Assembly: GCA_964441775.1 (NCBI GenBank)
Contig: CAYTVL010000006.1
Coordinates: 9,312 to 73,311, forward strand
DNA: 64,000 bases
From: an uncultured Enterobacteriaceae bacterium
GTDB taxonomy: Bacteria > Desulfobacterota > Binatia > Bin18
Direction: 5' to 3'
The position numbers were made by a program, and so were the translations under genes. Numbering within the stretch: position 1 is the first letter of the stretch; each line of letters begins with the position of its first letter. Of this stretch, positions 35,095-60,691 are shown piece after piece. The notes under the pieces are model-generated. The model saw only the letters and a list, made by a program, of their open reading frames with translations. It did no database searches and had not been told where the DNA came from.

Positions 35095-35132
35095 AGTGGA
35101 AATGAGACTAAAAATTTGGTTACACTAAAAAT

Positions 35133-44632: not shown

Positions 44633-46294
44633 ATGAAGACTCGTGTCGCCGTTGCTGTTAAAAAGCCCGATCGTGACGCAACCAAAAAGCGATCACCTCA
44701 ACCGCCACGGCTGAAAAAACTCGTCGCGCTCGGAGTGCTGTTGCCGTTCGTCGTCGGCATGGTCGTGCTGTGGTGGTGGAGCACAGGGCTCCAGCAGCAA
44801 CAGCTTGAGGCAGCAGCCCTTGCACAGGCTCAAGCTTACGTCCAAGCCTTACGGGAAACAGGCAGCATCTACGCAGCCGACTCAGGAAACCACGCAAAAG
44901 CGAATTTTTCTGTTTTGTTAACGAAATCCGCGGATGGGGTAAAAACTCAGGAGACTGCGATTACCAGACGGTTGCACTTCAAAGAATCGGCTCCTGGGCA
45001 AGGAAAAAATAACGAAGCGGCCAGCGAATTCATACAAGGAGCATGGACCACCCTGTCAGCCAACCCCGGACAAGATTCGTGGCGCTTCGAGGACCGACAC
45101 GGGCAACCTACGCTTCACTATGCCACAGAATGGAAAGAAGGCGAGACCAAAGGGATTATAGAGCTTCTCGTGCCGATGGATCGCCTGGAGTCTTCGTTCT
45201 CACAGTATCGCTTGATGCTCCTAGGCTTAGGTGGCGTCGTCGGGCTACTTAGCCTTGGCTGGCTGATGTTCTCGCAGCGCACCGTCCGGCAAGAGGCGTG
45301 GGAAGCAAAGTCACGCTTTTTGATTCTTGAACGCGATCACCTCGAACAGGAGAAGCGCCTGCTGACCTACGCGCGCGAACAGCAGGAAAGAAAGCAAGAA
45401 GAAACAATAGTCTACAGTATCACCGACATGCTCGCCACGGTCACGAGCGATCTCTTACAAGTGACCACCGAGCTCGCGTCCGGCGCTGCGGAAATGGCGG
45501 CTGGCGTCAATCAGACAACCGCTACTGGAGAAGAAGTCCAACGCACGGCGGCGCTCTCTCATCAAAAGGCGCAAGACGTCGCAGCGGCTGCTCAACATGC
45601 CGCCCAAGTAGCGCAAGCCGGAAAACAAGCTACTGAGGACACGACCAAAGAGATGCAGCGGATTCGTGATCAGATGCGGTCGATTACGGAAAGCACGGTG
45701 CAACTGAGCGAGCAGGGCCAGACCGTCCGTGAGATCATCGATACGGTGAATGATCTGGCCGAGCAGTCGAACGTGCTGGCCATTAACGCCGCCATCGAAG
45801 CGCAGAAAGCCGGGGTGCACGGCAACGGCTTTGTCATCGTGGCCCAAGAAGTACGCAGCCTCGCCCAACAGTCAAAAGACGCCACCGCGCAAGTGCGAGA
45901 GATTCTCAACGACATCGAGAACGCCACCAGTAGCGCCGTACAAATCACCACCCAAGGCGAGAAAGCTGCTGAAGCCGGCACGCAGCAGGCAATTGAAGCT
46001 GGAGAAGCGATTCGCTTATTGTTCCAGAGCGCGCAAGAGTCGGCGCAAAGCGCCGCGCAGATTGCTGCGTCCAGTCAACAGCAAATGCTTGGCATCGAGC
46101 AACTCGTTCGCGCCATGCACTCCATGCAGGACAGTAGTGCTCAGACGATGACCAACGCGCAACAAGTCGAGCACTGCGTCCAGCGCTTGCAAGAATTAGA
46201 TCAGCGCCTTAGGGCATTAAGCGAACAGCTCGGCGGAGACGCGTCGGTCCATGCGACGCCACCCGAGCAAGCAGAGTTGGCAAAAGCCGCGTAA
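44633..46294 (+). CDS. Methyl-accepting chemotaxis protein
   Basis: N-terminal TM helix, a periplasmic domain, a second TM helix and a C-terminal signalling domain with 'LAEQSNVLAINAAIEAQKAG'. Confidence 0.85.
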   Translation: MKTRVAVAVKKPDRDATKKRSPQPPRLKKLVALGVLLPFVVGMVVLWWWSTGLQQQQLEAAALAQAQAYVQALRETGSIYAADSGNHAKANFSVLLTKSADGVKTQETAITRRLHFKESAPGQGKNNEAASEFIQGAWTTLSANPGQDSWRFEDRHGQPTLHYATEWKEGETKGIIELLVPMDRLESSFSQYRLMLLGLGGVVGLLSLGWLMFSQRTVRQEAWEAKSRFLILERDHLEQEKRLLTYAREQQERKQEETIVYSITDMLATVTSDLLQVTTELASGAAEMAAGVNQTTATGEEVQRTAALSHQKAQDVAAAAQHAAQVAQAGKQATEDTTKEMQRIRDQMRSITESTVQLSEQGQTVREIIDTVNDLAEQSNVLAINAAIEAQKAGVHGNGFVIVAQEVRSLAQQSKDATAQVREILNDIENATSSAVQITTQGEKAAEAGTQQAIEAGEAIRLLFQSAQESAQSAAQIAASSQQQMLGIEQLVRAMHSMQDSSAQTMTNAQQVEHCVQRLQELDQRLRALSEQLGGDASVHATPPEQAELAKAA

Positions 46295-46340
46295 AGACGC
46301 CCGTCACGTTGGTCTGGTGGGAGTCGTCTTAAACGTGCTC

Positions 46341-46850
46341 ATGGAAACGCCGATACACAAAGCGGAAATCCCTGTCACCATGGAAACTGCGAATGCTCTT
46401 CTTGTTTGTACTCTGGATGCGCACCAGTGCGCCTTTCGTCTGGACATCGTACAACGGGTCGTCCGCGCCGCCGCGCTCACTCCGCTTCCTAAAGCCCCGA
46501 AGAGCGTCCTCGGCGTCGTGAATGTCGCCGGACAACTGGTTCCGGTTTTCAATCTTCGTCAACGCTTTGGTTTGCCCGCGCGAGAACTAGAGCCCACCGA
46601 TTGCTTTGTGATCGTCCGCGCCGTGCGTTTTTCTCTGATCTTCGTGGTCGACACGGTTGTTGAAGTCCGCGAACACGAATCGGAGAAAAAAATGCCGCTC
46701 AAACACCTCTTGCCCAAGGCGAGTGTGAGCGCCGGCGTGGAATGTTTCGGGAGTGGACTGATTGTTATCAACACCGTTAATTCGTTTCTTTTAGCCGAAG
46801 AGGAACGCCTGTTGACCAAGACGCTGCCCGGCATTCAGGAGGTCCGGTAA
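46341..46850 (+). CDS. cheW: CheW-like coupling protein
   Basis: CheW domain ('VLGVVNVAGQLVPVFNLRQRFGL'). Start set at ATG 46341, just after the MCP stop. Confidence 0.8.
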   Translation: METPIHKAEIPVTMETANALLVCTLDAHQCAFRLDIVQRVVRAAALTPLPKAPKSVLGVVNVAGQLVPVFNLRQRFGLPARELEPTDCFVIVRAVRFSLIFVVDTVVEVREHESEKKMPLKHLLPKASVSAGVECFGSGLIVINTVNSFLLAEEERLLTKTLPGIQEVR

Positions 46851-46851
46851 A

Positions 46852-48408
46852 TTGAGCGCCAGCCTCTCTCCTCAGGTGCTCGCGCAACTGAGCCAGCGCA
46901 TCGAAGCGTGGATGGGCGTCTATTTTCCCCTGGAACGCTGGCCGGATCTTGAGCGCAAGCTGCACGAAGCCGCAGCCGACTTCGGCTGTGTTGATGTAGA
47001 GGAGTGCGCTCGCTTGCTCACGACTGCTCCAATTACAAAACACCAGCTTGATGTGTTGGCGACCACGCTCACCGTGGGAGAAACCTATTTCTTTCGTGAA
47101 CCAAGCAGCCTGGAAATTGTCGAACGCGACCTCCTGCCAAAATTGTTGCAAGAGCGGCGCGCCGTTGACCAACGTCTCCGGGTCTGGAGCGCAGCGTGTT
47201 GCACGGGAGAAGAGCCCTATTCCATCGCGATCATGCTCCATCGCTTGTTGCCTGATCTGCCTTCTTGGAAGCTGACGTTGCTCGCCACGGACATTAACCC
47301 GAGATTTTTGCAGAAAGCAACTGAAGGCGCATATGGCCAGTGGTCGTTTCGCACCGTGTCCCCCACTTTACAAGAGCAGTATTTTTGCCGGACGCCAAGC
47401 GGACGCTACGCTATTCAGCCGGTGCTCAAACAGATGGTGAAGTTCGCCCGACTCAACCTGGCGGAAGACCAGTATCCTTCTCCCCTGAATGACACCACCG
47501 GCATGGATATCATCTTTTGCCGAAACGTCTTGATTTATTTTGCTGCGGAGCGGACCAAGCGCGTAATTGAGAATTTCTATCGCGCCCTCGCCGTCGGCGG
47601 CTGGTTCATCGTGAGCGCCGTGGAGACCGCGCTGGTGATGGACTCTCCCTTTACTCCGGTCCAGTTCCCTGGCGTGACTCTGTTCCGCAAAGATCCAGAG
47701 CGACTCTCGCTTTCTGTGCCAGCCGCCTCATTTCTCGGTGAGCCCACGCTTGAGCCGTCCGCGCCGCCAAGCCCGGCGCTCTCCGTCGCCGAGACGTTGG
47801 AAAAATTTTTCAACGTTGTCTCCGCGGCTTCTTTCGAGCACGACATTCATCAAGCCGAAACTGCTCCGTCAGAACTGCCACAAACGCTCACGCTTCAGAC
47901 GTATGAAGAGGCCCAGTATCTGTACACAGGGGGCCGCTATGCGGAGGCCATCGAGAAACTGTCCGCCATTTGTTGGGATGGACCGGCGGAGACGTTCCCC
48001 TTTCCAGCGGCGCGCGAACAAGGCATGACGTTGCTTACTCGCGCGTATGCCAATCAAGGGCAACTCGCCGAAGCACAATTGTGGTGCGACCGGGCGCTCG
48101 CGGTGAACACGCTCGATCCTGTGCTTCACTATTTGCGCGCCACGATTGCGCTAGAGTACGGGCAGGAGACCGAAGCCCTGTCTTCGCTGACTCGCGCCGT
48201 GTCACTTGACCAACGCTTTGTCCTCGCCCATTTCGTCCTGGGCGTTCTAGCGCGCCAACGTCACAACCAGCAGGAAGCACGGGAGCATTTTTCCGCGGCG
48301 CTGACGCTTTTGCGCCAACATCATCCAGACGACGTTCTGCCGCATTCCGAAGGGATGTCGGCGGGCCGACTGGCTCACATCCTCGTGGAGATGAACAAGG
48401 AACAGTAA
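46852..48408 (+). CDS. cheR: Chemotaxis methyltransferase CheR with C-terminal TPR repeats
   Basis: CheR N-terminal helical domain and an SAM-MTase domain ('RVWSAACCTGEEPYSIAIML' and 'DIIFCRNVLIYF'). The C-terminal ~150 aa are TPR-like. Confidence 0.85.
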   Translation: MSASLSPQVLAQLSQRIEAWMGVYFPLERWPDLERKLHEAAADFGCVDVEECARLLTTAPITKHQLDVLATTLTVGETYFFREPSSLEIVERDLLPKLLQERRAVDQRLRVWSAACCTGEEPYSIAIMLHRLLPDLPSWKLTLLATDINPRFLQKATEGAYGQWSFRTVSPTLQEQYFCRTPSGRYAIQPVLKQMVKFARLNLAEDQYPSPLNDTTGMDIIFCRNVLIYFAAERTKRVIENFYRALAVGGWFIVSAVETALVMDSPFTPVQFPGVTLFRKDPERLSLSVPAASFLGEPTLEPSAPPSPALSVAETLEKFFNVVSAASFEHDIHQAETAPSELPQTLTLQTYEEAQYLYTGGRYAEAIEKLSAICWDGPAETFPFPAAREQGMTLLTRAYANQGQLAEAQLWCDRALAVNTLDPVLHYLRATIALEYGQETEALSSLTRAVSLDQRFVLAHFVLGVLARQRHNQQEAREHFSAALTLLRQHHPDDVLPHSEGMSAGRLAHILVEMNKEQ

Positions 48409-48413
48409 CGGAA

Positions 48414-49046
48414 GTGACACGTATGAAAAGGGATAATCTTTCCGCCACCCTCGCACCTGAGCAAGCTGCCGCCGTTCCGGCTGCGACGCCGAGCGATACT
48501 GAATATATGTTGACACTGACTCCTCAACAAAAGCAATGCATTTTAGCAGAGCGCGCCGTTGCGCTCGCGCAAGGCAAGGAGAAAGACGCCGAACAAGGAG
48601 CAACGCTGCGCCTCGTCGAGTTTACACTCGCCCAACAGCGCTACGCCGTCGAGACTTGTTATGTCCGAGAAGTGCAGCATGTCACGAGCATTACCCCGAT
48701 CCCTTGTACGCCGGTCTTTGTGTTAGGCGTGATCGGCGTCCGAGGACGCATTCTTTCGGTGATTGATCTGCTGGCGTTTTTCGATCATCCCCAGGCTCGC
48801 GTTTCAGAAGGCGGTACGGTGATCGTCTTCGGGACGGAAGAACTCGAAGTCGGAGTGCTTGTGGATGGTATTCTCGGCGCACACACCGTCTCCTTGCAGG
48901 ACATCCGTTCCGCGCCTGCGGGTCTCTCCAGCATCCGCCGAGAATACTTACGGGGCGTCGGGAAGGAGCAACTGCTCTTGCTGGATATCGAGCGACTGTT
49001 CTCGGACGAGCGCATGCTCATCGGTGCCGACGAGACAGAGATCTGA
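48414..49046 (+). CDS. cheW: CheW-like coupling protein (second copy)
   Basis: CheW domain ('FVLGVIGVRGRILSVIDLLAFF'). Confidence 0.8.
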   Translation: MTRMKRDNLSATLAPEQAAAVPAATPSDTEYMLTLTPQQKQCILAERAVALAQGKEKDAEQGATLRLVEFTLAQQRYAVETCYVREVQHVTSITPIPCTPVFVLGVIGVRGRILSVIDLLAFFDHPQARVSEGGTVIVFGTEELEVGVLVDGILGAHTVSLQDIRSAPAGLSSIRREYLRGVGKEQLLLLDIERLFSDERMLIGADETEI

Positions 49047-49105
49047 AATGAATAAGTTTGCCGCCAGGCGGGACACCGCAACTTACGGAAAAGAGGAATC
49101 TCTCT

Positions 49106-51280
49106 ATGCAACGTGCAATCGAACGAGCCGTTGAATATGCCATGAAATACCTGAAGGTCTGGCAGAAGCTCGGCTTTCTGGGCGTCGTGTTCCTCATCCC
49201 TTTGACCATCTTCATGTTCAAGACCATTGCCGCCATGCGCCTGACCGGCGTGGATTTGGCGAGACAAGAGGCGCTGGGCGTGGACTATCTCGTGTCTTTA
49301 CAAAGTTTGCTGGAAAATGTGCAGCAACATCGAGAATTAGAAGCGGCGCTGCTCAGCGGTGATGCGAACGTTGGCGAGCAGGTCACGGCGAAACAAGCTG
49401 TGATTCAGGACGAGCTGAAAAAAGTCGATGCGGTAGACGAGAAAACAGGGGAAGCACTCCTGGCGACCAATCATTGGACGGCGTTGAGAAAACGGGTCGC
49501 GCGGCTTCTGGAGAGTAATCCAAAAGAAAAAGTGCAGGAAAACTTCGAACAGCACACCGCCGTCATCAAAGACTTGCTCGCTTTCATGGTGGTTATAGAA
49601 GACACCTCTAAATTAGCGTTGGACCCTCACCTTGCCAGCGCCAGTCTGGTCGATTTGTTCGCGCGGAAACTCCCGCAACTGAATGAAACACTGAGTCAAG
49701 CGCGAGGGATAGGAATGGGCGTCGCCGTCCGCAAAAACAAAACGGAGGAAGAACGAGTAAAGCTGAGCAAACTCGGCGCGTTGATCGAAGTGCGCCTGCA
49801 AGAAGCCCAGCAGGGGTTGGAAAAGGTTTTCGCCTATGACAATCGCCTGCGCAGCAAATTGGGGACGACCGGGGCGGAGTTGTTGAATGACGAGAACAGC
49901 ACCATCGATCTGTTCAGTCGTCAACTCCTCACTGCGTCGGCAATCCCGGCGGCGGCTTCCGAGGCCGTGATTGCCGCAAGCGCAAATCCGCTGGTCGCAA
50001 GTTTTGCGTTGACCCGACAAACCGGGGCCGCACTCGCCGATGCGCTGCATACACGCGAGAAGACTCTCTCCTGGGAAATGTACACCATGCTCAGTTGGAT
50101 TTTCGTGGGCGTGATTGTGGTGACGCTCATCGGCGTGGTCGTGGTCCGCGACATCACCGATCCGCTGCGGCGCGTGGTGCGAGTCGCCGAGCAAATCGCC
50201 CAAGGCGACCTTTCGGTTTCCGTGTCGACAGATGACCGGTCGGACGAATTCGGCGCGCTCCTCGCCTCTTTCCAACGCATGACCAAATCGCTGCAAGACA
50301 TGGCGCTCGCGGCTGAGCGCATCGCTCGGGGCGATCTGAGCGTTAGCATCGAGCCGCAGTCGCCGAAAGATATGATGGGCAACGTCCTTTCGAGACTCGT
50401 CCACAGTTTGCGAGAGATGACCGAGCAGATTCAAACAGGGACCGATCTCTTGAGCTCTACAACGAACGAAATCCTTGCCGCCACCACGCAAGTGGCTGCT
50501 GGCGCCACGCAAACCGCTTCCGCCGTGACCGAAACGGCGGCCACTGTGGAGCAAGTGAAACAAACCTCTTTCATCGCCAGCCAAAAAGCGAAAAGCGTGG
50601 CCGAAAGCGCGCAAGTCACCGCGCAAGTCTCGCGCGCGGGAGAACAATCAGTGAGTTACGCTATCAGTCGCATGGAGCGGATTCGCGAGCAAATGGAATC
50701 CATTGCTGATAGCGTAATCAAACTTGGAGAGCAAAGTCGCGCGATTGGCGAGATCATTACTTCGGTGAATGACTTGGCGGACCAATCGAATTTGCTTTCT
50801 GTTAATGCGGCCATTGAAGCTGCGAATGCGGGTGAGCATGGCAAAGGCTTCACGGTCGTCGCACAAGAAGTGAAGAGCCTGGCCGAACAATCAAAGCAGG
50901 CCACTGCACAAGTGCGCACGATTCTCAGAGATATTCAAAAGGCTACGAATGTCGCGGTGATGGTGACTGAACAAGGAACCAAAGCCGTGGAAGCTGGCGT
51001 TTCTCAGTCGCTTGAAGCTGGTGGTTCGATTCGCATGCTCGCCAAGAGCATGGCGGAAGCGGCGCAAGCAGTTGCGCAAATTGCCGCCTCCAGCCAGCAG
51101 CAAGTTGTCGGTATGGACCAGGTCGTGATTGCGATCGAAAGCATCAAAGAAGCGAGCAACCAGAACGTGACCAGCGTGAATCAGGTGGAGAAGAGCATGC
51201 ATCGCCTGCTCGATCTTGGTCAACAATTACAACAACTAGTCGGACGCTACAAATTGCACGGCGCCACGGCGCAAGCATAG
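49106..51280 (+). CDS. Methyl-accepting chemotaxis protein with tandem HAMP domains
   Basis: Two HAMP-like segments (DPLRRVVRVAEQIAQGDLSV and LQDMALAAERIARGDLSV) and the MCP signalling domain 'LADQSNLLSVNAAIEAANAG'. Start at ATG 49106, which has the better RBS. Confidence 0.85.
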   Translation: MQRAIERAVEYAMKYLKVWQKLGFLGVVFLIPLTIFMFKTIAAMRLTGVDLARQEALGVDYLVSLQSLLENVQQHRELEAALLSGDANVGEQVTAKQAVIQDELKKVDAVDEKTGEALLATNHWTALRKRVARLLESNPKEKVQENFEQHTAVIKDLLAFMVVIEDTSKLALDPHLASASLVDLFARKLPQLNETLSQARGIGMGVAVRKNKTEEERVKLSKLGALIEVRLQEAQQGLEKVFAYDNRLRSKLGTTGAELLNDENSTIDLFSRQLLTASAIPAAASEAVIAASANPLVASFALTRQTGAALADALHTREKTLSWEMYTMLSWIFVGVIVVTLIGVVVVRDITDPLRRVVRVAEQIAQGDLSVSVSTDDRSDEFGALLASFQRMTKSLQDMALAAERIARGDLSVSIEPQSPKDMMGNVLSRLVHSLREMTEQIQTGTDLLSSTTNEILAATTQVAAGATQTASAVTETAATVEQVKQTSFIASQKAKSVAESAQVTAQVSRAGEQSVSYAISRMERIREQMESIADSVIKLGEQSRAIGEIITSVNDLADQSNLLSVNAAIEAANAGEHGKGFTVVAQEVKSLAEQSKQATAQVRTILRDIQKATNVAVMVTEQGTKAVEAGVSQSLEAGGSIRMLAKSMAEAAQAVAQIAASSQQQVVGMDQVVIAIESIKEASNQNVTSVNQVEKSMHRLLDLGQQLQQLVGRYKLHGATAQA

Positions 51281-51298
51281 GCAAACAAGGATCTTGGC

Positions 51299-54200
51299 AT
51301 GGATACAAAAGACACTGCCTTGTTAGCGAAGTTACGGGGTCTGTTTGGAATGGAAGCGGAAGAGCGGCTGCAGGTCATCACCAGCAGTTTGCTGGCGCTG
51401 GAGCAACAGCCCTCCGCTCAGACCCACACCGAGCTGGTCGAGACGCTCTTTCGCGAAGTGCATACCCTCAAGGGCGCCGCGCGCGCGGTGAGCCTGAGCG
51501 ACATTGAAGCCATCAGTCAGGCCGTGGAGAACGTCTGCGCCGGGCTCAAACGCAAGACGGTGACGGCGGGACCGGAGTTATTTGACACCTTTCATCGGGC
51601 AATGGATCTGGTGCGGCAGTTGAGTGCGGCGCCCGAGGGGGTCACGGCGCAGCAGATTGCGGACGTACTCGCGGCCATTACGCACGCCGAAGAACACGCC
51701 CAAGGACCGCAAGCCTGGCAGGCTCAACAAACTCAGTCTGCCCCGCCCACGCTGACCTTTCAACAAGATGACGACGTTCCGTCCGCTTCTCAACTCATGA
51801 CCCAGGGGACTCCGTCTACGATCACAGGCGAAGCACAAGACTCTTTGTTAGCGAAGTTACGGGGTCTGTTTGGAATGGAAGCGGAAGAGCGGCTGCAGGT
51901 CATCACCAGCAGTTTGCTGGCGCTGGAGCAACAGCCCTCCGCTCAGACCCACACCGAGCTGGTCGAGACGCTCTTTCGCGAAGTGCATACCCTCAAGGGC
52001 GCCGCGCGCGCGGTGAGCCTGAGCGACATTGAAGCCATCAGTCAGGCCGTGGAGAACGTCTGCGCCGGGCTCAAACGCAAGACGGTGACGGCGGGACCGG
52101 AGTTATTTGACACCTTTCATCGGGCAATGGATCTGGTGCGGCAGTTGAGTGCGGCGCCCGAGGGGGTCACGGCGCAGCAGATTGCGGACGTACTCGCGGC
52201 CATTACGCACGCCGAAGAACACGCCCAGGCTCAGTCTGCTCTACCCACACCGGCCCTGACAAGCATCGAACAATTCACATCGGCCACACCGACCACACCG
52301 GAGCCTGCACAAACACAAATCGTAGAGGCGCTTCAGCCAGTCGAGATCCACGAGGACTCTGCCGCAAACGACGACGCACCCTCGCCAAAAGCAAAAAAGA
52401 AACGGCTGCCGCGCGCAGCCGCCGCTCCTCGCCAAACCGCGGCCCGGCAACCCCGAGCCGCGAAGAAAAAGGCTACGATTGAACCGTCCGTTGCCCTGAA
52501 CGAAAGTGAAGCAGCAGCTTCAGGAAATACGGAGGACAACGTACAACTTGTTGACATAAATCCGCACGAGACGCTCGCCGCCAGTGAACCGGTGGAAGTC
52601 GCAGCGCCCGAGCCGACTCCAGTACAACCACCAGCGGCAATGCCGCAGCTCGAACGCCTGACGCCTCCGCTTGCGACCGCGCGCAAGCTGGAACCGCTCG
52701 TCGATTTCAGAGAAAAAGTAGACAAGAACAAGAAAAAGAAAAGCGGCGCCACGTCTACGGAGACGGTCCGCATCGAGGCGTCCAAGCTGGACGCGCTGTT
52801 TCTCCAAGCCGAGGAAATGCTGACCGTCAAACTCAAAACCAACGAACATGCCTCGGAGCTGCGCGAACTGGGGACCATGTTGGAAGCGTGGAAGCGAGAA
52901 TGGGCGAAAGTCCACATGCACCTCCGCAAAGCGCAAGGGTTGGTGGAAAAAGAAGAGAACCGCACCTCTCCTGATCCGATCTACGCGCAAACCGCCAAAC
53001 TTGTTGAATTTTTGAACTGGACGCAGGACCATTTTCGCATCGTGGACCGTACGCTGACGCGGATGGTGAAAGGCCTGGCGAAGGATCAACAGTCCTTAGG
53101 GAGCATGGTCGATATCCTTTTAGAAGACGCCAAAAAAATTCTTCTGATGCCGTTTGCGTCCGCACTCGAAGTGCTGCCTAGAATGGTGCGGGATCTTTCG
53201 CGCACCCAGGGTAAAGAGGTGGAGTTCATGCTCCAGGGAGAAGAGGTCGAAATAGACAAACGGATCCTGGAAGCCATCAAAGATCCGTTGATTCATCTGC
53301 TGCGCAATTGCATCGATCACGGGATCGAGCTGCCAGCGGAACGAGCGCAGTGGAGCAAAGCGCCACGCGGTTCCCTGTCGGTCGCCATCGCGCCAAGCGA
53401 TGGCAACACAGTGGAAATCATTGTGTCAGACGACGGCGCTGGTATTGATGTGGAGAAAGTCAAAAAAGCGGCGGTGGCCTGCGATGCCCTTTCACAAGAA
53501 GCGGCGGCGTTGCTCTCGGATCAGGAAGCGATTGCCTTGATCTTTCAGTCCGAAGTCTCTACCAGTGACGCCGTGAGTGATATTTCGGGGCGCGGGCTGG
53601 GCATGGCCATCGTTCGGGAAAAAGTCGAAAAACTTGGTGGTTCCATCGCCGTGGAAACTCAGCTCCATCAGGGCACGACCTTCCGACTGCGCTTGCCGCT
53701 GACGTTGGCGACCTTTCGCGGCATTCTCGTACAGATCGCGGGACAAGCGTTCATCGCGCCCACGGCGAATGTTGAACGCATGGTGCGGGTCAAACGGGGC
53801 GTGGCGATACAGACCAGTGGAGGGAAAGAAACCCTCTCCCTTGCCGGCTACACGCTGCCTTTCACACAGCTTGACCGAGTGCTGGGCCTCGCCTCGCCAA
53901 TGCCCACGGTTGCAAAAGAGCGATTTCAACTCGCGTTGGTCGTGGGGCAAGATGAGCGGCAAGTCGCTTTTGGCGTAGATGCTGTCATGGACGAACAAGA
54001 AGTACTGTTCAAAAGTCTCGGTCAACAACTCGTGCGGGTGCGGAATATCGCGGGTGCCACGGTTTTGGGCTCGGGGCAAATCGTCCCAATCCTCAATATC
54101 AACGATCTGTTGGCCGCCGTGAACACCGCAACGTTCTCGTCTACAAAAGTCATACACCAAACGCCCAAAGCGGACCTCCAGAAGAAAAAGATTTTGGTGG

Positions 54201-54544
54201 CGGAAGACTCGATCACCTCACGAATGTTGCTCAAAGAGATTCTCGAATCCGCAGGCTATGTGGTGTCAACGGCGATTGACGGAGAAGACGCGTTTACGAC
54301 CTTGCAGAAGAACTCGTTCGACCTCGTGGTGTCCGATGTGGAAATGCCGCGCGTGGACGGGTTTTCTTTGACGGGGAAAATTCGTAGTGATGAACGTTAT
54401 ACCCAATTGCCGGTGGTCCTGGTGACTGGCTTGGAGTCGCAAGGAGATCGTGAGCGTGGCGTCGCGGTGGGCGCCAGCGCCTACGTGGTCAAGGGCAGTT
54501 TTGACCAAAGCAACTTATTGGAGACGATTCGTCGCTTAATCTAA
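51299..54544 (+). CDS. cheA: CheA-type histidine kinase with duplicated N-terminal Hpt (P1) domains and a C-terminal receiver (CheA-CheY hybrid)
   Basis: Two identical Hpt segments ('HTLKGAARAV'), a dimerisation domain and an HATPase (DHGIE...DDGAGID...GRGLGMAIV). A CheW-like P5 domain precedes the REC ('ILVAEDS', 'DLVVSDVEMP'). Confidence 0.9.
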   Translation: MDTKDTALLAKLRGLFGMEAEERLQVITSSLLALEQQPSAQTHTELVETLFREVHTLKGAARAVSLSDIEAISQAVENVCAGLKRKTVTAGPELFDTFHRAMDLVRQLSAAPEGVTAQQIADVLAAITHAEEHAQGPQAWQAQQTQSAPPTLTFQQDDDVPSASQLMTQGTPSTITGEAQDSLLAKLRGLFGMEAEERLQVITSSLLALEQQPSAQTHTELVETLFREVHTLKGAARAVSLSDIEAISQAVENVCAGLKRKTVTAGPELFDTFHRAMDLVRQLSAAPEGVTAQQIADVLAAITHAEEHAQAQSALPTPALTSIEQFTSATPTTPEPAQTQIVEALQPVEIHEDSAANDDAPSPKAKKKRLPRAAAAPRQTAARQPRAAKKKATIEPSVALNESEAAASGNTEDNVQLVDINPHETLAASEPVEVAAPEPTPVQPPAAMPQLERLTPPLATARKLEPLVDFREKVDKNKKKKSGATSTETVRIEASKLDALFLQAEEMLTVKLKTNEHASELRELGTMLEAWKREWAKVHMHLRKAQGLVEKEENRTSPDPIYAQTAKLVEFLNWTQDHFRIVDRTLTRMVKGLAKDQQSLGSMVDILLEDAKKILLMPFASALEVLPRMVRDLSRTQGKEVEFMLQGEEVEIDKRILEAIKDPLIHLLRNCIDHGIELPAERAQWSKAPRGSLSVAIAPSDGNTVEIIVSDDGAGIDVEKVKKAAVACDALSQEAAALLSDQEAIALIFQSEVSTSDAVSDISGRGLGMAIVREKVEKLGGSIAVETQLHQGTTFRLRLPLTLATFRGILVQIAGQAFIAPTANVERMVRVKRGVAIQTSGGKETLSLAGYTLPFTQLDRVLGLASPMPTVAKERFQLALVVGQDERQVAFGVDAVMDEQEVLFKSLGQQLVRVRNIAGATVLGSGQIVPILNINDLLAAVNTATFSSTKVIHQTPKADLQKKKILVAEDSITSRMLLKEILESAGYVVSTAIDGEDAFTTLQKNSFDLVVSDVEMPRVDGFSLTGKIRSDERYTQLPVVLVTGLESQGDRERGVAVGASAYVVKGSFDQSNLLETIRRLI
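51320..52227 (+). repeat. Perfect in-frame tandem duplication inside cheA (383-bp identical copies at 51320-51702 and 51845-52227, period 525 bp)
   Basis: Identical nucleotide strings at both ends and in the middle of the copies. The encoded 127 aa are identical. Confidence 0.85.
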
Positions 54545-54566
54545 GAAGGGGCTCACGGGTTGTCAT

Positions 54567-55658
54567 ATGTCTGTGGTTCGCGTGCTCATCGTTGAAGACT
54601 CGCTGGTGGAACGCACCTTGATGGTGAGTCTTCTCAGCGCTGACCCCGAAATCGAAGTCGTGGGGGCAGTGCCGAGCGGCGCAGCCGCGCTCTCGTTTCT
54701 CAAGCAGCAACGGCCCGATGTTATTACCATGGACATCACCATGCCGGACTTGAATGGGTACGAAACGACGCGGCGCATTATGGAAACGACGCCAGTGCCG
54801 ATTATTATCGTTGGCGAAAGATGGAGTGTTGAGGAAGGGGACGCTTCCCCCGTGTTCGATACCGGAGCCGTCGCCGAGCTACAGAAACCTTCCGGCGTAG
54901 GCAGCCTCGACTATGAAGAAGAGGCAAAACGGTTTGTTCAGACGGTGAAAGCGATGGCGGAGGTCAAGGTAGTAAGGCGCTGGGCGCGTCATCGCCATCG
55001 ACGGAACGAAGGGGACTCAAAACCAGAAGCTCTTGCCTTGGACGTTGCTCCTCCTCAAGAGCGAAAAGACCTGCATGTGGTGGCGGTTGGGTCTTCTACG
55101 GGCGGGCCAGCCGTATTGCAAACTGTTTTAGCACATTTACGCAAGGATTTTGCTTTGCCAGTCGTTATTGCTCAACATATTGCTCCAGGATTTCTCGACG
55201 GTCTCACGAAATGGTTGGGACAGACCACGGGGCACAAGGTGCAGATTGCCATGCAACGAGAACGACTGGCGCCGGGGCACATCTATCTGGCCCCAGATGG
55301 GTTACAGATGGGAGTCGAGCCGCCAGGCGTCATTGTCCTTCGAAAAGACGCCCTCGAACATGGCATGCGGCCCGCGGTGTCCTACCTGTTCCGGTCCGTG
55401 ATGAGTGCGTTCGGCAAAAACGCCGTAGGGGTGTTGCTCACGGGCATGGGACGAGACGGCGCGGAGGAGCTCAAGCAAATGCGGGAGACGGGGTCTCTCA
55501 CGATTGCCCAAGACCAAGCCACCTCCATTGTCTTTGGCATGCCAGGAGAAGCGGTCAAGCTGGGCGCGGCCATGTATGTGCTGCCGCCGGAAAAAATTGC
55601 AGCGCTTTTGAACGATATGATGGACTGTTCCACCACCGCCGGTCTCAGCGCTTCTTGA
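54567..55658 (+). CDS. cheB: Chemotaxis response regulator protein-glutamate methylesterase CheB
   Basis: REC domain ('VLIVEDS', 'DVITMDITMP') and a methylesterase domain ('GSSTGGP' and 'GMGRDGA'). Confidence 0.9.
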   Translation: MSVVRVLIVEDSLVERTLMVSLLSADPEIEVVGAVPSGAAALSFLKQQRPDVITMDITMPDLNGYETTRRIMETTPVPIIIVGERWSVEEGDASPVFDTGAVAELQKPSGVGSLDYEEEAKRFVQTVKAMAEVKVVRRWARHRHRRNEGDSKPEALALDVAPPQERKDLHVVAVGSSTGGPAVLQTVLAHLRKDFALPVVIAQHIAPGFLDGLTKWLGQTTGHKVQIAMQRERLAPGHIYLAPDGLQMGVEPPGVIVLRKDALEHGMRPAVSYLFRSVMSAFGKNAVGVLLTGMGRDGAEELKQMRETGSLTIAQDQATSIVFGMPGEAVKLGAAMYVLPPEKIAALLNDMMDCSTTAGLSAS

Positions 55659-55664
55659 GGCGAG

Positions 55665-56819
55665 GTGCGGAACAGGAATGAGCGTATGAGTGCAAAAAAG
55701 ACCATCCTCATTGTAGAAGGAAGCCGGACGCAAGCCGAGCGGTTGAGGCTTGTGTTGGAGGCATACGACTATGCCGTGAGCATGGCGACGGCCAGCAGTG
55801 AAGCGCTCGTCGCCGCACGCGCGCAACAACCTGCGCTCATCATCAGCGGCGTCGCCCTGGCAGGAACAGACGGCTTAGATGGGTATGAGATGTGTGCGGC
55901 GCTCAAGCGGGACAAGGAATTGCAGCAGATTCCAGTTGTTTTATTAACTGCGCTGTCGGATGTGGAAGACCTGCTGCGCTGTCTAAAATCGCGTGTCGAC
56001 TATTGCATCGCGAAGCCCTATCAAGAAGAAGAATTACTCGCCAGGATTTCCGCGATCCTCACCGGTCTGGTGCGCACCATTGGGCAAACGGAACGAGAAA
56101 ACCTTGAAGTGCTCCTGCGCGGAGAACGCGAAGTCATCGCCGCCGATCACCAGCAACTTGCACGCTTGCTCTTGTCAACTCACGAAAACTACAGCGTCTT
56201 GTTACGCCAGAATCGTGCGTTGTCCGCCACGCAACTTCAACTCAAAACGCAGAACCAGCATCTTCAAACAGAATGTGAGCGCCTGCAAACCGCGCTACGA
56301 CAAGCGCAAGAAGGAGAGACGACGCTTTCGACATCGCATGCAGTCGCAGTGGGAGCAAAAGATGGGGTCCACGGAGACGAAGAGAATCTCGTCTTGCTCG
56401 CGGATGACACTGCCGTCGGTCAAGTGTTGTTAAGAAGATTTCTCGAAAAATTAGGCTACCAAGTTGACATAATGCACGATGGTCTTGACGTCGTCAAGGC
56501 ATATAAAAAACGACGGTACGCGGCTGTGGTGATGGATGTTCAGTTGCCGACGCTGGACGGTTGTGAAGCCACGCGGCAGATTCGTCAACATGAATACTCC
56601 TGCGGACGACAGGTTCCCGTCATCGTGGTCGCGGCGTATGCGCAACCTCATGATGAGGAGCGCTGTTTGGCGGCAGGCGCCAACGAGTATTTGCTGAAGC
56701 CGGTAACGTTGGAAGCGTTGAAACGCATACTGACGTCACGGAGGTTACCCCTTTCATCATCAAATGGAAAAGACGCAGCGGGCGCACGCGGGTCCGCCAC
56801 TCGGACGGAGAGCTTGTGA
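55665..56819 (+). CDS. Tandem receiver protein: degenerate (non-phosphorylatable?) REC - coiled coil - canonical REC
   Basis: REC1 has 'ILIVEGS' and 'LIISGVALAGTDG', lacking the acidic pair and the phospho-Asp. REC2 has 'LLADDT', 'VVMDVQLPTLDG' and 'LLKP'. Confidence 0.75.
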   Translation: MRNRNERMSAKKTILIVEGSRTQAERLRLVLEAYDYAVSMATASSEALVAARAQQPALIISGVALAGTDGLDGYEMCAALKRDKELQQIPVVLLTALSDVEDLLRCLKSRVDYCIAKPYQEEELLARISAILTGLVRTIGQTERENLEVLLRGEREVIAADHQQLARLLLSTHENYSVLLRQNRALSATQLQLKTQNQHLQTECERLQTALRQAQEGETTLSTSHAVAVGAKDGVHGDEENLVLLADDTAVGQVLLRRFLEKLGYQVDIMHDGLDVVKAYKKRRYAAVVMDVQLPTLDGCEATRQIRQHEYSCGRQVPVIVVAAYAQPHDEERCLAAGANEYLLKPVTLEALKRILTSRRLPLSSSNGKDAAGARGSATRTESL

Positions 56820-58768
56820 GGAAAACCGTCGCTGCAGAAAATCTATCGCCCCTCTCCATGGCGCTACCGTCGCGAGAAAAAGGAAAAGAGCTATACGCGA
56901 TTGACTCGATACTGGCTCCGCCTCCTCGGGATCCCTACGAAATGGAGCGGGCCGAACTCGACGCGTATTTACAGAGCACCGAGTATTTCCCTACGAAGAC
57001 CAGTCTCCTCGAATTCGCTCGCCGTTATAATGTCCCGGTGAATGCGCGAACCCAACGCGAAGAGATCGTTCGTCTCTGCCTGCGCATGATTCACGATATT
57101 CCCGCGAGTTTCGCCGGCCTCCGTGCGGCGGAACGGCCTCCGGCTTCCCCGTCAACCGGCGGAGGCCCTGCCCGGCAAGCTTTAACGGACTTCTTCGTCG
57201 GGTCAAAGGTGGAAAGTCGAACCGACGAGAGGGGCAGCAAAAAACTGTCAACTGACCTCTTGGATACTATTTTGCGTTGCCACGAAGTCGGGTTATTACT
57301 CGCCCAAGCGCGTGGCGCCGATATCGAAATGTTCCGGCAGATCTTAGAGACGTGCGAGAGCCCCATCCAAACGCACGTGCGCTTCCTGAGTAATCTTGTC
57401 GATTTTGCGCGGCTGGAAGCCGAGCAATATGAATTCGCTCGTACGCCGTTTCGTCTGCGTGACTGTATCGGTGAAGCGCTGAAGCGACTAGCCTTTTCCG
57501 CTCATGCGAAGCAGCTAGAACTGTGCTACGATGTAAAATCTGACGTCCCCGAGCGCGTGGTGGGCGACCCAACGCGACTCCAAGAGGTCATTCTCCACCT
57601 TGTTGACAATGCCCTCAAATTCACTGAACAAGGCGAAGTGGTGCTTGAGGTCAAAAAAGCGGAACAATCCAGTCAATCGCCTGTGACCGCCCCAACCAAC
57701 TTCCAGGTTCAGGACTCGGACTCTTTTCTCTTGCACTTTTCCGTGCGCGACACTGGCGTAGGTATGCCGCTAGAACAACTCCAGTCCATAACCCAATTGT
57801 TCTTTTCGCAGGGTATGGACGCTCCGCCTCGGTTACGAGGCCTGGGGCTCACCATCGCGCACTGCTTGGTGAAGTCGATGGGGGGCGCGCTGGCGATGAG
57901 CAGTGAAGCGGCCAATGGGTCCATCTGCTCCTTTTCCGTGCGGCTCCACAATGAGAGAGCGCGTGGCAGTGGCGGGGCCATACACACGAGCGCCCTGGGT
58001 GATCGGCAAATTCTCGTGGTCGACGATAACGCCGCCTACCGACGTATTCTGCACGATTTGTTACTTTCTTGGGGCGCGCGCCCACATCTCGCCGCCAGTG
58101 GACGAGAAGCCTTGGCGATGTTGTATAAACAGCCAGAGGCTGAGCCTTTTGCCGCTATCGTGCTCGATGGTCATCTTGCGGATATGGAAGGATTTGCCTC
58201 AATAAGACGGCAACATCTCGCCGAGAACTCGCTCCTGGCTAGCCCCATGCTCATGATGTTGGCGTCAACCGACCCGAGAAAAGAGATCGAGCGTCGCCGC
58301 GAGTTGCAGGTCGCGGCGTTTCTGCACAAACCGATCTCTCCCGCTGAACTGCTCCACGCGCTGTTGGAAGCCTCGGTGTCTGGAACGGTGTTGCCGGAAG
58401 AGGAAGTGTTGGATCGTACTGCGTTGTGGGCGCTCGTCGCCGGAGATACGACGCTGCTACAGGAATTAATTGGCGTGTTCGAGCAGGATTGTGGACGCTT
58501 CTTCTTTGCCTTGCAGCACGCCGTGCTCATCGAGAACTATCGTGACGTTATGACCGCCGTTCATGCGCTCCAAGGGACGGCTAGTCACTTTGCCGCACGC
58601 GGAGTGCTGCGCATTTCGGCGGTGATCGAAAGTTTTAGTTGTCAGGGCGATTTTGCCCGCGTCCAAGAAGCCATGACCCAACTCGCCGCCGAACTCTCGC
58701 GGCTCAAAAGAGCGTTAGACGATTTGCAACGAGAATTGTCTAGTTCGTCAACTTCGAAAGACTTTTAA
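56816..58768 (+). CDS. Hybrid sensor kinase: novel N-terminal ~70-aa domain - HisKA - HATPase_c - REC - Hpt
   Basis: 'LSNLVDFARLEAEQYEF' HisKA X-region. HATPase 'DTGVGMP' and 'GLGLTIAHCLV'. REC 'ILVVDDN' and 'AIVLDGHL'. C-terminal Hpt-like helices. The N-terminal domain is paralogous to ORF 60245-60691. Confidence 0.8.
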   Translation: MRKTVAAENLSPLSMALPSREKGKELYAIDSILAPPPRDPYEMERAELDAYLQSTEYFPTKTSLLEFARRYNVPVNARTQREEIVRLCLRMIHDIPASFAGLRAAERPPASPSTGGGPARQALTDFFVGSKVESRTDERGSKKLSTDLLDTILRCHEVGLLLAQARGADIEMFRQILETCESPIQTHVRFLSNLVDFARLEAEQYEFARTPFRLRDCIGEALKRLAFSAHAKQLELCYDVKSDVPERVVGDPTRLQEVILHLVDNALKFTEQGEVVLEVKKAEQSSQSPVTAPTNFQVQDSDSFLLHFSVRDTGVGMPLEQLQSITQLFFSQGMDAPPRLRGLGLTIAHCLVKSMGGALAMSSEAANGSICSFSVRLHNERARGSGGAIHTSALGDRQILVVDDNAAYRRILHDLLLSWGARPHLAASGREALAMLYKQPEAEPFAAIVLDGHLADMEGFASIRRQHLAENSLLASPMLMMLASTDPRKEIERRRELQVAAFLHKPISPAELLHALLEASVSGTVLPEEEVLDRTALWALVAGDTTLLQELIGVFEQDCGRFFFALQHAVLIENYRDVMTAVHALQGTASHFAARGVLRISAVIESFSCQGDFARVQEAMTQLAAELSRLKRALDDLQRELSSSSTSKDF

Positions 58769-58854
58769 GTTTCACCACTTCTCCCCGATGGGTATCAATG
58801 CGGTGTCCCTCTAGCGACTCAGATCGCACGGGATACGGCATAGGAGGTTTACGT

Positions 58855-60336
58855 ATGACTGGGTTTGACCCTGTCGTGATTATGATAGTCGTGCTGACTG
58901 CCGCCATTGTGGTGCTCCTCATCCGGATGGTGACGCAATCCAACGCACAGAAACCCGGGGCGGTGCTCAAGGCTGGAGCGGCGGCTAACGGCCCGCCTTT
59001 TATTGGACAGAGCCTTTCGGATATGTCGGGCAAGCAGCCTTCAGGACCGCGCCTCAGTACGCCACGCGTTGACCAATCTCCGCCTCTGCTCCCAACGTTA
59101 GCGCCCGTTAACGAACGGAAAAGCGCGCCGCAGGAGCCCGCCATTCTTGACCTAGCCAAACGCGACACCGCATCTGAGCCGTCTCCGCAGCCAGAGCCGA
59201 GCTTGCTCGTAACGGACAGTGACGCCAAGGAAAAAGAACCGGAGCCCACGCTCACTGCTGGAATCGCCTATGGACGGCGAAAATCAGATCTCTTGAAAGA
59301 GGAGAACGTGCAGACCTTATTTTCTGATCTCAAAGGAGAACGTAAAGCTCGCTTTATCAGTTTCATCAACTTCAAAGGAGGAGTGGGCAAAAGCACGACC
59401 GCGGTGGAAACCGCCGCGAGTCTAGCAAAAAATTACGGGAAACGGGTGCTGCTTATTGACCTCGACCCGCAAACGAACGCGACGTTCTATCTCATGGATC
59501 ATGGCGAGTGGGAGAGTTGGCAAAAGACGAACGGTTCGCTCAAGACTCTTTTCGACGCGTACCTCGCCGGGCAGGGCGACAGTTTCGACGTGTCCCGAAT
59601 CATCAAAAAGGATCTGCTGTGCCACGGCGGAGCCTCGCTCGCGCCTGGATTTGAACTCCTGCCCTCACATCTGGCGTTGGTGCAGATCGATATCCAACTC
59701 GCAGCCAAAGCTACGGTTGGCGAGTCGGTGTTCAGCAGTCAGGCTATTATTCGTCAAGCCTTGCAACGCGTGCAGGACCAATACGATTACGTTATTTTTG
59801 ACTGTCCGCCGAACTTCAATTTGGTGACGCAGAACGGCTTATTCGCCAGTGACGGGTATGTCATTCCCGCGATTCCCGATTATCTCTCCACCCTCGGCAT
59901 CAATTTGATCCAAGGAGAAGTCAATCGCTTCTCTGATCGCATCCGCCATGCCTTGGCCATGTTTGGCGGCACCTTCACCGGGCCCAAGCTGGAGGGCATT
60001 ATTTTTACCCGGGTGCGGTTGCGCAGTCGCTCGCCGTTACGATTTATCGATTTACATGAGCGACGCATTCATGAAGTCGTGCGCACCAATCCCGATGTCG
60101 TGTTCAAAAATTTCATCAGTGAGGCTGTGCGATTCGCTGAAGCGCCGGAGCGACAATTACCCGTCAGTCTTTCGCCGCGGATTGAAGATCGCGACGCGCG
60201 GAATGAGTTTATCCGGCTTGCCGAAGAGTTTATCCAACGCGTAGATGGAAAGGAGCTGTCCGGTGACGTCAATGAGCACACATGGGCTGGCGCAGAGGTT
60301 GGAGACTATCAGCAAAGCTTTGCGCGAGCTTCCTGA
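58855..60336 (+). CDS. Membrane-anchored ParA/MinD-family ATPase (ParC/PpfA-like, chemosensory-cluster associated)
   Basis: RBS AGGAGG 7 nt before ATG 58855. A TM helix ('VVIMIVVLTAAIVVLLI') and a ~150-aa Pro/Ser/Glu-rich linker. Deviant Walker A 'FKGGVGKSTTA' and 'LIDLDPQTNAT'. Confidence 0.75.
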   Translation: MTGFDPVVIMIVVLTAAIVVLLIRMVTQSNAQKPGAVLKAGAAANGPPFIGQSLSDMSGKQPSGPRLSTPRVDQSPPLLPTLAPVNERKSAPQEPAILDLAKRDTASEPSPQPEPSLLVTDSDAKEKEPEPTLTAGIAYGRRKSDLLKEENVQTLFSDLKGERKARFISFINFKGGVGKSTTAVETAASLAKNYGKRVLLIDLDPQTNATFYLMDHGEWESWQKTNGSLKTLFDAYLAGQGDSFDVSRIIKKDLLCHGGASLAPGFELLPSHLALVQIDIQLAAKATVGESVFSSQAIIRQALQRVQDQYDYVIFDCPPNFNLVTQNGLFASDGYVIPAIPDYLSTLGINLIQGEVNRFSDRIRHALAMFGGTFTGPKLEGIIFTRVRLRSRSPLRFIDLHERRIHEVVRTNPDVVFKNFISEAVRFAEAPERQLPVSLSPRIEDRDARNEFIRLAEEFIQRVDGKELSGDVNEHTWAGAEVGDYQQSFARAS

Positions 60337-60691
60337 TCAGAGCCTTGTTTCTTTCCTTCGACAGCTCCGGGTCTTTTCCAAAGAGCCGTCGGCCAGGCAA
60401 CGAACGAAAACAGCGGCGATCCTCCTTCCGCCTTCGCGCGACCCACGCCTTATGGATCGTGAAGAGCTCCAGGAGTATCTGTCCAGCAGTACGTCTTTTC
60501 CTCGGAAAGCTAATTTATTAACTTTTGCTCGGCGTTACAAGGTGCCGGTCAATATTCGCACCCCGCGTGAAGAAATCATCCGCCTCTGTTTACGAATGAT
60601 TCATGATATTCCTCGCGGGCTCAATGTGTTGCGTTTTCTCGCGGAACAGCACGAACCTCTCGATCCTCCCTCTCGTTTGGTCTTGCACTAG
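60245..60691 (+). CDS. Small protein carrying the same novel helix-extension-helix-like domain as the hybrid kinase N-terminus
   Basis: About 65% identity over ~70 aa to residues ~30-105 of the 56816 kinase (…LLxFARRYxVPVNxRTxREEIIRLCLRMIHDIP…). Overlaps the ParA-like gene's 3' end by ~60-90 bp, suggesting translational coupling. Alternative start at ATG 60272. Confidence 0.6.
   Translation: MERSCPVTSMSTHGLAQRLETISKALRELPDQSLVSFLRQLRVFSKEPSARQRTKTAAILLPPSRDPRLMDREELQEYLSSSTSFPRKANLLTFARRYKVPVNIRTPREEIIRLCLRMIHDIPRGLNVLRFLAEQHEPLDPPSRLVLH

Follow-up and report, generated by a model that had tools for sequence, protein, structure and literature searches.

The window analysed here, a stretch of 64,000 nucleotides from contig CAYTVL010000006.1 of an uncultured bacterium with a Binatia lineage in GTDB, encodes at positions 58855 to 60336 an ATPase of the ParA/MinD (deviant Walker A) superfamily that has an intact catalytic core and carries its own N-terminal transmembrane helix, separated from the core by a long disordered linker. 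This built-in anchor is a genuine, conserved and lineage-restricted departure from the architecture of known ParA ATPases, and it comes together with a new family of partner proteins. For the ParA/MinD superfamily, two recent overviews report just two modes of matrix binding, via an amphipathic helix at the C-terminus or via a basic face that contacts DNA, each of them reversible and dependent on ATP (PMC11407121; PMC10241942), and full-text literature searches, though of incomplete coverage, returned no report of a ParA/MinD ATPase with an N-terminal transmembrane anchor of its own. On balance, if only just, we favour the view that the ATPase and its partner constitute a membrane-tethered module which is here attached to a non-flagellar chemosensory pathway and recruits or organises a hybrid kinase at the membrane.

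Every ParA/MinD ATPase studied so far generates patterns by ATP-controlled cycling on and off the nucleoid or the membrane. A permanent resident of the membrane cannot do so, and its ATP switch must therefore serve another purpose, for which dimerisation in the plane of the membrane, the capture of a partner or cargo and reversible contact with the nucleoid are candidates. Understanding such a module would widen the design space of positioning systems and add a new partner family as well as a domain found on signalling proteins that is a candidate for portable localisation. Its small parts lend themselves to reconstitution in Escherichia coli or in vitro, although the Binatia-like host lineage is uncultured.

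An ATPase with a built-in membrane anchor

An earlier note made from the sequence alone had described a ParA core with the motifs KGGVGKST and IDLDPQTNAT behind a single transmembrane helix, and the open reading frame contains both motifs exactly as described, the latter at residues 201 to 210. The helix, of which residues 7 to 23 read VVIMIVVLTAAIVVLLI, peaks at a Kyte-Doolittle 19-residue mean (KD19) of 2.99 and sums to -2.8 kcal/mol on the Hessa scale, far beyond transmembrane thresholds, and no other stretch of the protein approaches the values of residues 7 to 24. An AlphaFold2 model made from 30 family members agrees with a single anchor: it has a helix at residues 6 to 28 with predicted local distance difference test (pLDDT) scores of 77 to 93, followed by unstructured residues 31 to 147, a well-folded core and a disordered C-terminal tail at residues 466 to 493, with pLDDT below 50 in both disordered regions.

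For comparison we used 46 full-length sequences, hereafter called long forms, which comprise the window protein and 45 database homologs that mostly come from Binatia-like metagenome-assembled genomes. All of them have the same succession of transmembrane helix, linker and core, which is therefore no chance feature, and they have the N-terminal start M-x-G-x-D(P) in common. The transmembrane helix is translated and the start at ATG 58855 is real. We reject a start downstream of the helix, which the earlier note had raised as the observation that would undo its reading, because the Shine-Dalgarno sequence and the ATG are conserved among related loci (TAGGAGGTT or GAGGAGGTT precedes the homologous ATG in loci L001, L003, L010, L011 and L012, and TAGGAG in L005), because the helix is found in 46/46 long forms (KD19 of 2.2 to 3.1 throughout, with an Arg/Lys-rich stretch after it), because the ratio of nonsynonymous to synonymous substitution rates (dN/dS) lies below one, and because none of the internal start codons is kept throughout the family, M57 being I or L in homologs. 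In codon comparisons with four close loci, dN/dS amounts to 0.08 to 0.22 for the N-terminal tail together with the helix and to 0.015 for the core.

The tail ahead of the helix has a net charge of -1, and the helix is followed by R24, K33 and K39. Since an acidic tail precedes the helix and an Arg/Lys-rich stretch follows, the positive-inside rule predicts an N-out/C-in topology with the ATPase domain in the cytoplasm. A membrane-tethered ATPase, as the earlier note had suggested, is thus the best reading of the protein, with a core that would face the cytoplasm by this predicted topology.

The region between helix and core is disordered as the note had claimed, but shorter than the approximately 150 residues that it gave: the disordered linker comprises about 117 residues in the window protein, and roughly the final 25 residues ahead of the core are conserved in the closer long forms. 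Its description as rich in Pro, Ser and Glu holds for the first two only, and Pro/Ser/Ala-rich is more fitting (residues 25 to 160 contain 13% P, 11% L, 10% S, 10% A, 7% K and 7% E). A linker is present in every long form, with a length of 81 to 143 residues (median 130), and compared with close homologs it shows 32-51% identity, exclusively in-frame indels and a dN/dS of about 0.24 where dS is measurable. The basic juxta-core segment that follows has the consensus GRRKxDLLKEExVxTLFSDLKxERKARF among closer long forms and includes a low-confidence helix at residues 146 to 160 in the AlphaFold2 model. Its identity to the window protein is 78-85% in relatives with at least 78% overall identity and 19-27% in L003 and L005.

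The catalytic core matches the Pfam families AAA_31 (8e-41) and CbiA (2e-18) over residues 166 to 437, and K174, K179, D202, D204 and D316 do not vary in any of the 46 long forms or of 68 shorter relatives, the short forms introduced below. This set includes the signature lysine of the deviant Walker A motif (K174), and the Walker A' and Walker B aspartates are present. By analogy, ATP-dependent dimerisation and partner-stimulated hydrolysis are predicted properties of the protein. A Foldseek search against the PDB placed Soj/ParA proteins on top (9a6n, 8ray, 2bek and 6iub, with target TM-scores of 0.85 to 0.89), with McdA next, type Ia ParAs after it and MinD lower, and a sequence search of the PDB agrees with this ranking. 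None of the NCBIfam equivalogs reaches its cut-off (minD_bact, TIGR01968, 31 vs 213 bits; RepA, 76 vs 348; eps_fam, TIGR01007, 25.8 vs 108). In pairwise comparisons, the core reaches 90.5 bits with Aeromonas ParC, taken as comparator from locus L016 with its genuine motAB-parC-parP-cheW arrangement, 89 bits with a chromosomal ParA of Binatia and 151 to 278 bits with short forms. Judged by its sequence, the ATPase represents a separate ParA subfamily that is neither ParC/PpfA nor MinD.

The short forms (soluble proteins of about 300 residues, from NC10/Methylomirabilota and others) share the ATPase subfamily and have a member of the partner family encoded directly downstream. The four short forms that align most closely share 46-54% identity with the window ATPase, a value that goes down to about 38% within the matches listed and to 34% for the remote L020. 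Unlike the long forms, they begin directly at MARVISFINFKGGVGKT, with neither transmembrane helix nor linker, juxta-core segment or acidic tail. Several of the arginines described below are missing from them as well, and they are likewise uncharacterised.

The alternative label given in the earlier note, MinD-type, does not fit. MinD and FlhG belong to the same superfamily and also act at the membrane, but they bind it reversibly as ATP dimers via a C-terminal amphipathic helix, whereas the protein studied here has a constitutive N-terminal transmembrane helix, an acidic disordered tail with no C-terminal amphipathic membrane-targeting sequence, a fold closer to Soj than to MinD and a TIGR01968 score far under the cut-off. 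Neither minC and minE nor other min genes were found near the ATPase locus in Pfam scans of its neighbours. As for matrix binding, the link to the membrane is made by the N-terminal helix, and equivalents of the Soj arginines R189 and R218 are present as part of a larger arginine cluster.

This cluster consists of eleven positions (R386, R388, R390, R392, R396, R403, R404, R426, R433, R446 and R449; window positions 60010-60201), nine of which are invariant arginine in the 46 long forms. Of the other two positions, R392 is occupied by R in 43 sequences and by K in three, and R449 by R in 42, by K in three and by N in one. In short forms, positions 390, 392, 404, 433 and 449 are mostly non-basic. 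A MAFFT alignment places R390 and R426 on R189 and R218 of Bacillus subtilis Soj, in whose sequence the arginines stand at the right positions. Hester and Lutkenhaus reportedly described these two residues in 2007 as the DNA-binding arginines of Soj, which is a lead and no test for R390 and R426.

The partner protein and domain X

The gene that overlaps the end of the ATPase gene encodes a small protein with N-terminal helices of the pattern THxLAxxLExxxxALRELPD, a basic disordered linker and a C-terminal domain of three helices (approximately 60440 to 60649) that we call domain X. In its AlphaFold2 model, the two N-terminal helices have pLDDT values of 65 to 73 and are followed by the basic disordered stretch, and residues 57 to 126 form the three-helix domain with values above 90. 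The start of the protein, MSTHGLAQRLETISKALRELPDQ, matches the N-termini of its homologs P0130 and P0137 and of the "TTHELA" group that belongs to short forms. No other part of the partner is conserved as widely as this N-terminus, and many partners of ParA/MinD ATPases act via their N-terminal region (PMC11407121). Searches of Pfam, NCBIfam, PADLOC and PHROG gave no family assignment and detected no CheW or methyl-accepting chemotaxis protein (MCP) domain; on sequence grounds, the partner is a small member of a rare, previously undescribed family.

Genes of homologous partners (126 to 139 residues) lie directly downstream of the ParA gene or overlap it in eight of ten distinct long-form loci, within chemosensory clusters as well as outside them, and a homologous partner is also encoded directly downstream of the short-form ATPases in L006, L008 (NC10) and the remote L020, where identity of the ATPase is only 34-46%. 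The conserved unit is hence the ATPase with its partner and not the ATPase with chemosensory genes. The overlap of the two genes suggests translational coupling. Within it, the end of the ATPase (YQQSFARAS and the stop) and the N-terminus of the partner (MSTHGLAQRLETISKALRELPD) are written in the same bases, so that the [FL]ARAS codons of the window coincide with those for the conserved KALRELPD of the partner. [FL]ARAS is the C-terminus in 26/46 long forms, and dS in the tail is low among close loci (0.15 to 0.4), which fits since these bases also code for the start of the partner. Long forms with no adjoining partner gene (L005 and the group of P0047-P0049) still end in LAKAS or AAKSA.

Domain X of the partner recurs in the hybrid kinase encoded directly upstream of the ATPase, where residues 31 to 112 (56906-57151) share 60% identity with the C-terminal half of the partner (E 5e-31). 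An exhaustive profile search with a hidden Markov model (HMM) across 1.84 billion representatives identified 61 members of the domain X/partner family at E<=1e-3, most of which are stand-alone proteins of partner size (about 80 to 210 residues). The larger members examined carry domain X only as a fusion to hybrid kinases (P0206, P0208, P0209 and fragments) and to one DUF3391-HD_5 protein of the HD-GYP type (P0210 in locus L019, adjoining a PAS kinase); the kinase fusions came from the exhaustive HMM search and had been missed by a word-index profile search. Domain X may serve as a recruitment or oligomerisation tag. Its top structure matches, none of them significant, are T4 endonuclease VII, the C-terminal domains of MANF/CDNF and Rho_N-like proteins, and one remote member of the partner family has a weak PHROG match to endonuclease VII (4.5e-5).

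Two other assignments of the ATPase-partner pair were considered and rejected. A plasmid or phage partition module of type Ib would resemble it in having an ATPase followed by a small partner, and Soj/ParA proteins with partners of type-Ib style such as ParG, omega or McdB are indeed the best structural matches and share the flexible N-terminal region and compact C-terminal domain of the partner. However, the partner fold found here is not of the ribbon-helix-helix, helix-turn-helix or ParB-like kind, the ATPase has a transmembrane helix and linker, and the context is chromosomal. Neither the partner nor its remote homolog P0216 has a match in 72,556 plasmids, no array of centromere-like repeats lies near the locus, and no promoter or terminator signal stands above background around the genes. 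A defence system was the other candidate, for which PADLOC returned only a local match of the P-loop to PDC-M28B (1e-8, residues 163 to 204) and nothing for the partner.

Chemosensory context, proposed mechanism and alternatives

Upstream of the ATPase gene and on the same strand lies a complete chemosensory cluster, which encodes in this order an MCP, CheW, a CheR-TPR protein, CheW, an MCP with HAMP domain, a CheA(Hpt x2)-CheW-REC protein, CheB and a REC-REC protein and is followed by the hybrid kinase. We take this gene order to resemble non-flagellar pathways such as Wsp or Pil-Chp. Both MCPs have two transmembrane segments each and the hybrid kinase has none. The kinase gives no Pfam match to HisKA/DHp, and the region where its H-box is expected reads ETCESPIQTH, so it may be devoid of a canonical phospho-accepting histidine as far as its sequence tells. 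Relatives with at least 78% identity to the window ATPase (L001, L002, L010, L011 and L012) have chemosensory cluster, kinase, ATPase, partner and an amidohydrolase in the same order; synteny extends over the cluster in L001, L002, L011 and L012, and the cluster is truncated in L010.

In the mechanism that we propose, the N-terminal helix would anchor the ParA/Soj-type ATPase permanently in the cytoplasmic membrane in N-out/C-in orientation, with a leash of approximately 120 to 130 residues that keeps the catalytic domain in the cytoplasm. Two tethered monomers may then form an ATP-sandwich dimer by analogy with other ParA/MinD systems, and dimerisation would create a binding site at which the conserved N-terminal helices of the partner engage the dimer and stimulate hydrolysis, while domain X at the partner's C-terminus would provide specificity for cargo. 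In the lineage of the window, this module appears to have been joined to a Wsp/Chp-like chemosensory cluster, and its most likely job would be to bring the hybrid kinase, and with it the output of the pathway, to the membrane where the transmembrane receptors reside, or to arrange it in space there. The hybrid kinase would be the obvious cargo in this clade because it has a domain X of its own and is encoded directly upstream.

The closest functional analogy may be the ParC/ParP system of Vibrio and Aeromonas tethered to the transmembrane landmark HubP, except that the window ATPase carries the anchor itself. Both cases feature a ParA-like ATPase linked to chemosensory genes and a dedicated adaptor to signalling proteins, and the HubP system likewise ends at a membrane anchor whose cytoplasmic region is long and flexible. 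ParC, by contrast, is soluble and anchored via the separate transmembrane protein HubP, whereas anchor and leash are here part of the ATPase, and ParP has an array-binding domain similar to CheW, whereas the adaptor studied here carries the unrelated domain X that recurs on a hybrid kinase. The sequence affinity of the window core to ParC is moreover no higher than to Soj. The PpfA/TlpT system of Rhodobacter sphaeroides is similar in that a ParA-like ATPase with Soj-like basic residues is encoded in a chemosensory operon and has a partner that acts via its N-terminus, but PpfA, a soluble protein, coats the nucleoid and sets the position of a receptor cluster in the cytoplasm; in the window, both MCPs are transmembrane proteins, the ATPase is fixed in the membrane and its partner is no chemoreceptor.

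Several observations weigh against recruitment of the hybrid kinase as the function of the module. The linkage to chemosensory genes is limited to one clade, so the cargo of the ancestral module may have been something other than a signalling protein, and the partner gene is missing beside the long-form ATPases in L005 and L024. Domain X has no significant structural neighbour, and what it binds may be a protein, DNA or the ATPase itself. In addition, a conserved leash of around 130 residues is not obviously needed for simple membrane recruitment, which also leaves the arginine cluster specific to long forms unexplained; leash and cluster may both point to a further ligand, for instance DNA.

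Such a ligand is central to the alternative that survives best, which we nevertheless think unlikely. The ATP dimer, tethered to the membrane, would bind nucleoid DNA non-specifically as Soj does, with a leash that reaches the nucleoid and a partner that releases the ATPase, and would thereby bridge the two. The nucleoid could then act as a matrix that positions membrane items such as receptor arrays, or the chromosome could be tethered to the envelope, and either variant could coexist with the recruitment of the hybrid kinase. Bridging is favoured by the DNA-binding Soj/ParA proteins as the nearest structural relatives, by the alignment of R390 and R426 with R189 and R218 of Soj, by the conservation of the eleven-position arginine cluster in the 46 long forms, several positions of which are non-basic in short forms, and by the leash of 81 to 143 residues in every one of them. 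Furthermore, several long-form loci lie near the oriC-proximal parAB-atp genes, and domain X shows a weak, non-significant likeness to helical DNA-binding modules similar to SAP/Rho_N or of the endonuclease VII type. DNA binding is, however, read from aligned motifs only, an arginine-rich face could equally bind acidic phospholipids or the acidic C-terminal tail, and the surroundings of the locus are free of centromere-like repeats. ParC retains such basic residues as well, yet localisation to the nucleoid has not been seen for it (PMC11407121). A more far-reaching version, which we regard as no less tentative, would have the membrane-fixed ParA grasp the nucleoid in its ATP state via leash and arginine surface so that the chromosome serves as a ruler for the membrane signalling machinery, with domain X as a portable address tag from a new adaptor family that is also fused to hybrid kinases and an HD-GYP-type protein.

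It is improbable that the protein is a membrane-bound member of the ParC/PpfA family with the chemoreceptor array as its cargo, as the label of an array-positioning ATPase in the earlier note would imply. ParC and PpfA are the known ParA-like ATPases of chemosensory operons (PMC11407121), and the position at the end of a complete cluster, in the window as in all close relatives, would suit such a role. This location is the one defining feature of the family that is found here, and it is confined to the window and relatives with at least 78% identity; relatives with 56-62% identity, more distant yet transmembrane-bearing, and the short forms lie outside chemosensory clusters. The other two features, a partner of ParP or TlpT type and a specific sequence affinity, are absent. 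The core is no closer to ParC than to chromosomal ParA and far closer to soluble ParAs unlinked to chemosensory genes (see the bit scores above), and there is no ParP-like partner with a CheW domain and no TlpT-like one, in contrast to the parC-parP-cheW arrangement of L016. The domain that the partner shares with another protein of the locus links it to the hybrid kinase and not to an MCP, CheW or CheA.

A further alternative with very little in its favour is the production of two isoforms, with a second start at the internal GTG 59308 (V152) that would yield a soluble ParA with a lead of 22 residues, or, in the extreme, an annotated N-terminus that is never made. The GTG is preceded by a GAGGAG resembling a Shine-Dalgarno sequence (window positions 59296-59310), lies 22 codons before the Walker A lysine and is also found in L001, L010 and L011. 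However, the spacer between GAGGAG and GTG measures only 3 nt, GAGGAG represents codons of a conserved K-E-E, and the GTG site is lacking in L003 and L005, whereas the 150 codons upstream are open, tolerate only in-frame indels, evolve under purifying selection and start from a first ATG with a strong conserved Shine-Dalgarno sequence. We give next to no credence to a bacterial tyrosine kinase (BY-kinase) or Wzc-like polysaccharide co-polymerase kinase, which AAA_31 also spans, whose usual layout is a transmembrane helix with a P-loop and to which the weak TIGR01007 match would point, since that match remains far under its cut-off, there is no Wzz domain, second transmembrane helix or C-terminal tyrosine cluster (one Tyr in the tail), and the KGG motif with signature lysine and the Soj-like fold are present, or to a secreted protein with signal peptide, given the acidic n-region, the h-region of 17 to 18 residues, the lack of an evident AxA site and the positive charges after the helix.

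Coordinates, relatives and neighbouring genes

Table 1. Positions of the ATPase, its parts and the adjoining genes in the window.
Feature	Positions	Strand	Basis or remark
Upstream chemosensory cluster	44633..56819	+	Pfam
Soluble hybrid kinase HATPase_c-REC-Hpt, N-terminal domain X (~56906-57151)	56816..58768	+	Pfam, alignment with partner
Shine-Dalgarno sequence AGGAGG	58842..58847	+	7 nt 5' of ATG 58855
Coding sequence of the transmembrane-anchored ParA-family ATPase	58855..60336	+	493 aa + stop; architecture common to 46 long forms
Acidic N-terminal tail MTGFDP, net charge -1	58855..58872	+	Predicted outside the cytoplasm; motif M-x-G-x-D-P conserved
Single transmembrane helix, residues 7-24, VVIMIVVLTAAIVVLLIR	58873..58926	+	Hydrophobicity, AlphaFold2, conservation
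Disordered Pro/Ser/Ala-rich linker, residues ~31-147	58945..59295	+	pLDDT <50
Conserved basic juxta-core segment, residues 139-165, YGRRKSDLLKEENVQTLFSDLKGERKA	59269..59349	+	Alignment with homologs
Soj/ParA-type core, residues 166-463	59350..60243	+	Pfam AAA_31, CbiA; Foldseek
Deviant Walker A motif KGGVGKST, residues 174-181	59374-59397	+	Sequence motif
Acidic disordered C-terminal tail ending FARAS + stop	60244..60336	+	pLDDT <50 at residues 466-493
Partner gene, 139 aa	60272-60691	+	Overlaps ATPase gene end by 65 nt (60272-60336)

A protein search recovered about 50 clusters of 455 to 520 residues with 55-82% full-length identity to the window ATPase, the few named ones of which are labelled Candidatus Binatia, and a scan of genome collections gave only three close loci. 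Two loci labelled "Methylomirabilota" and "uncultured Enterobacteriaceae" (L011 and L012) share 78-81% identity and complete synteny with Binatia loci, and their taxon labels are probably binning or labelling errors. The relatives with 56-62% identity have other surroundings. In L003/4, L023 and L024 the ATPase gene comes directly behind the ATP synthase operon, beside gidAB-parAB, in L005 it lies about 4 kb downstream of that operon, and in L025 it comes after phoU-phoB-phoR; none of these loci contains chemosensory genes. The ATP-synthase-linked regions correspond to positions 2059-9730 of L003, 1-6592 of L023, 1-4208 of L024 and 1-6209 of L005, and the window contains no ATP synthase genes. 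The origin-proximal site after gidAB-parAB-atp may be the ancestral location of the module.

For the amidohydrolase encoded downstream of the partner (60874-61977), identity to related loci amounts to 93-97%, compared with 78-81% for the ATPase, 66-70% for the partner and 56-69% for the hybrid kinase, and the module therefore evolves much faster than this housekeeping neighbour. In NC10, the short-form ATPase and partner of L008 (3740-7860) are flanked by a 501-residue HATPase_c_3 protein, an HNH/ScoMcrA-like protein and a HicA toxin; these surroundings look like a mobile or defence island, and PADLOC gave no system match for them. Genes for a pseudopilin (GspH/N_methyl) and a prepilin peptidase lie about 10 to 25 kb from the ATPase gene in the window (34564-35915), in L001 (19735-21488) and in L025 (7329-8847), which hints at a relation of the chemosensory cluster to type IV pili or machinery similar to type II secretion systems. 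Finally, positions 37958-39829 of the window encode a protein of 623 residues that combines a double zinc ribbon with adenylate/guanylate cyclase and AAA_16 (STAND-like) domains.

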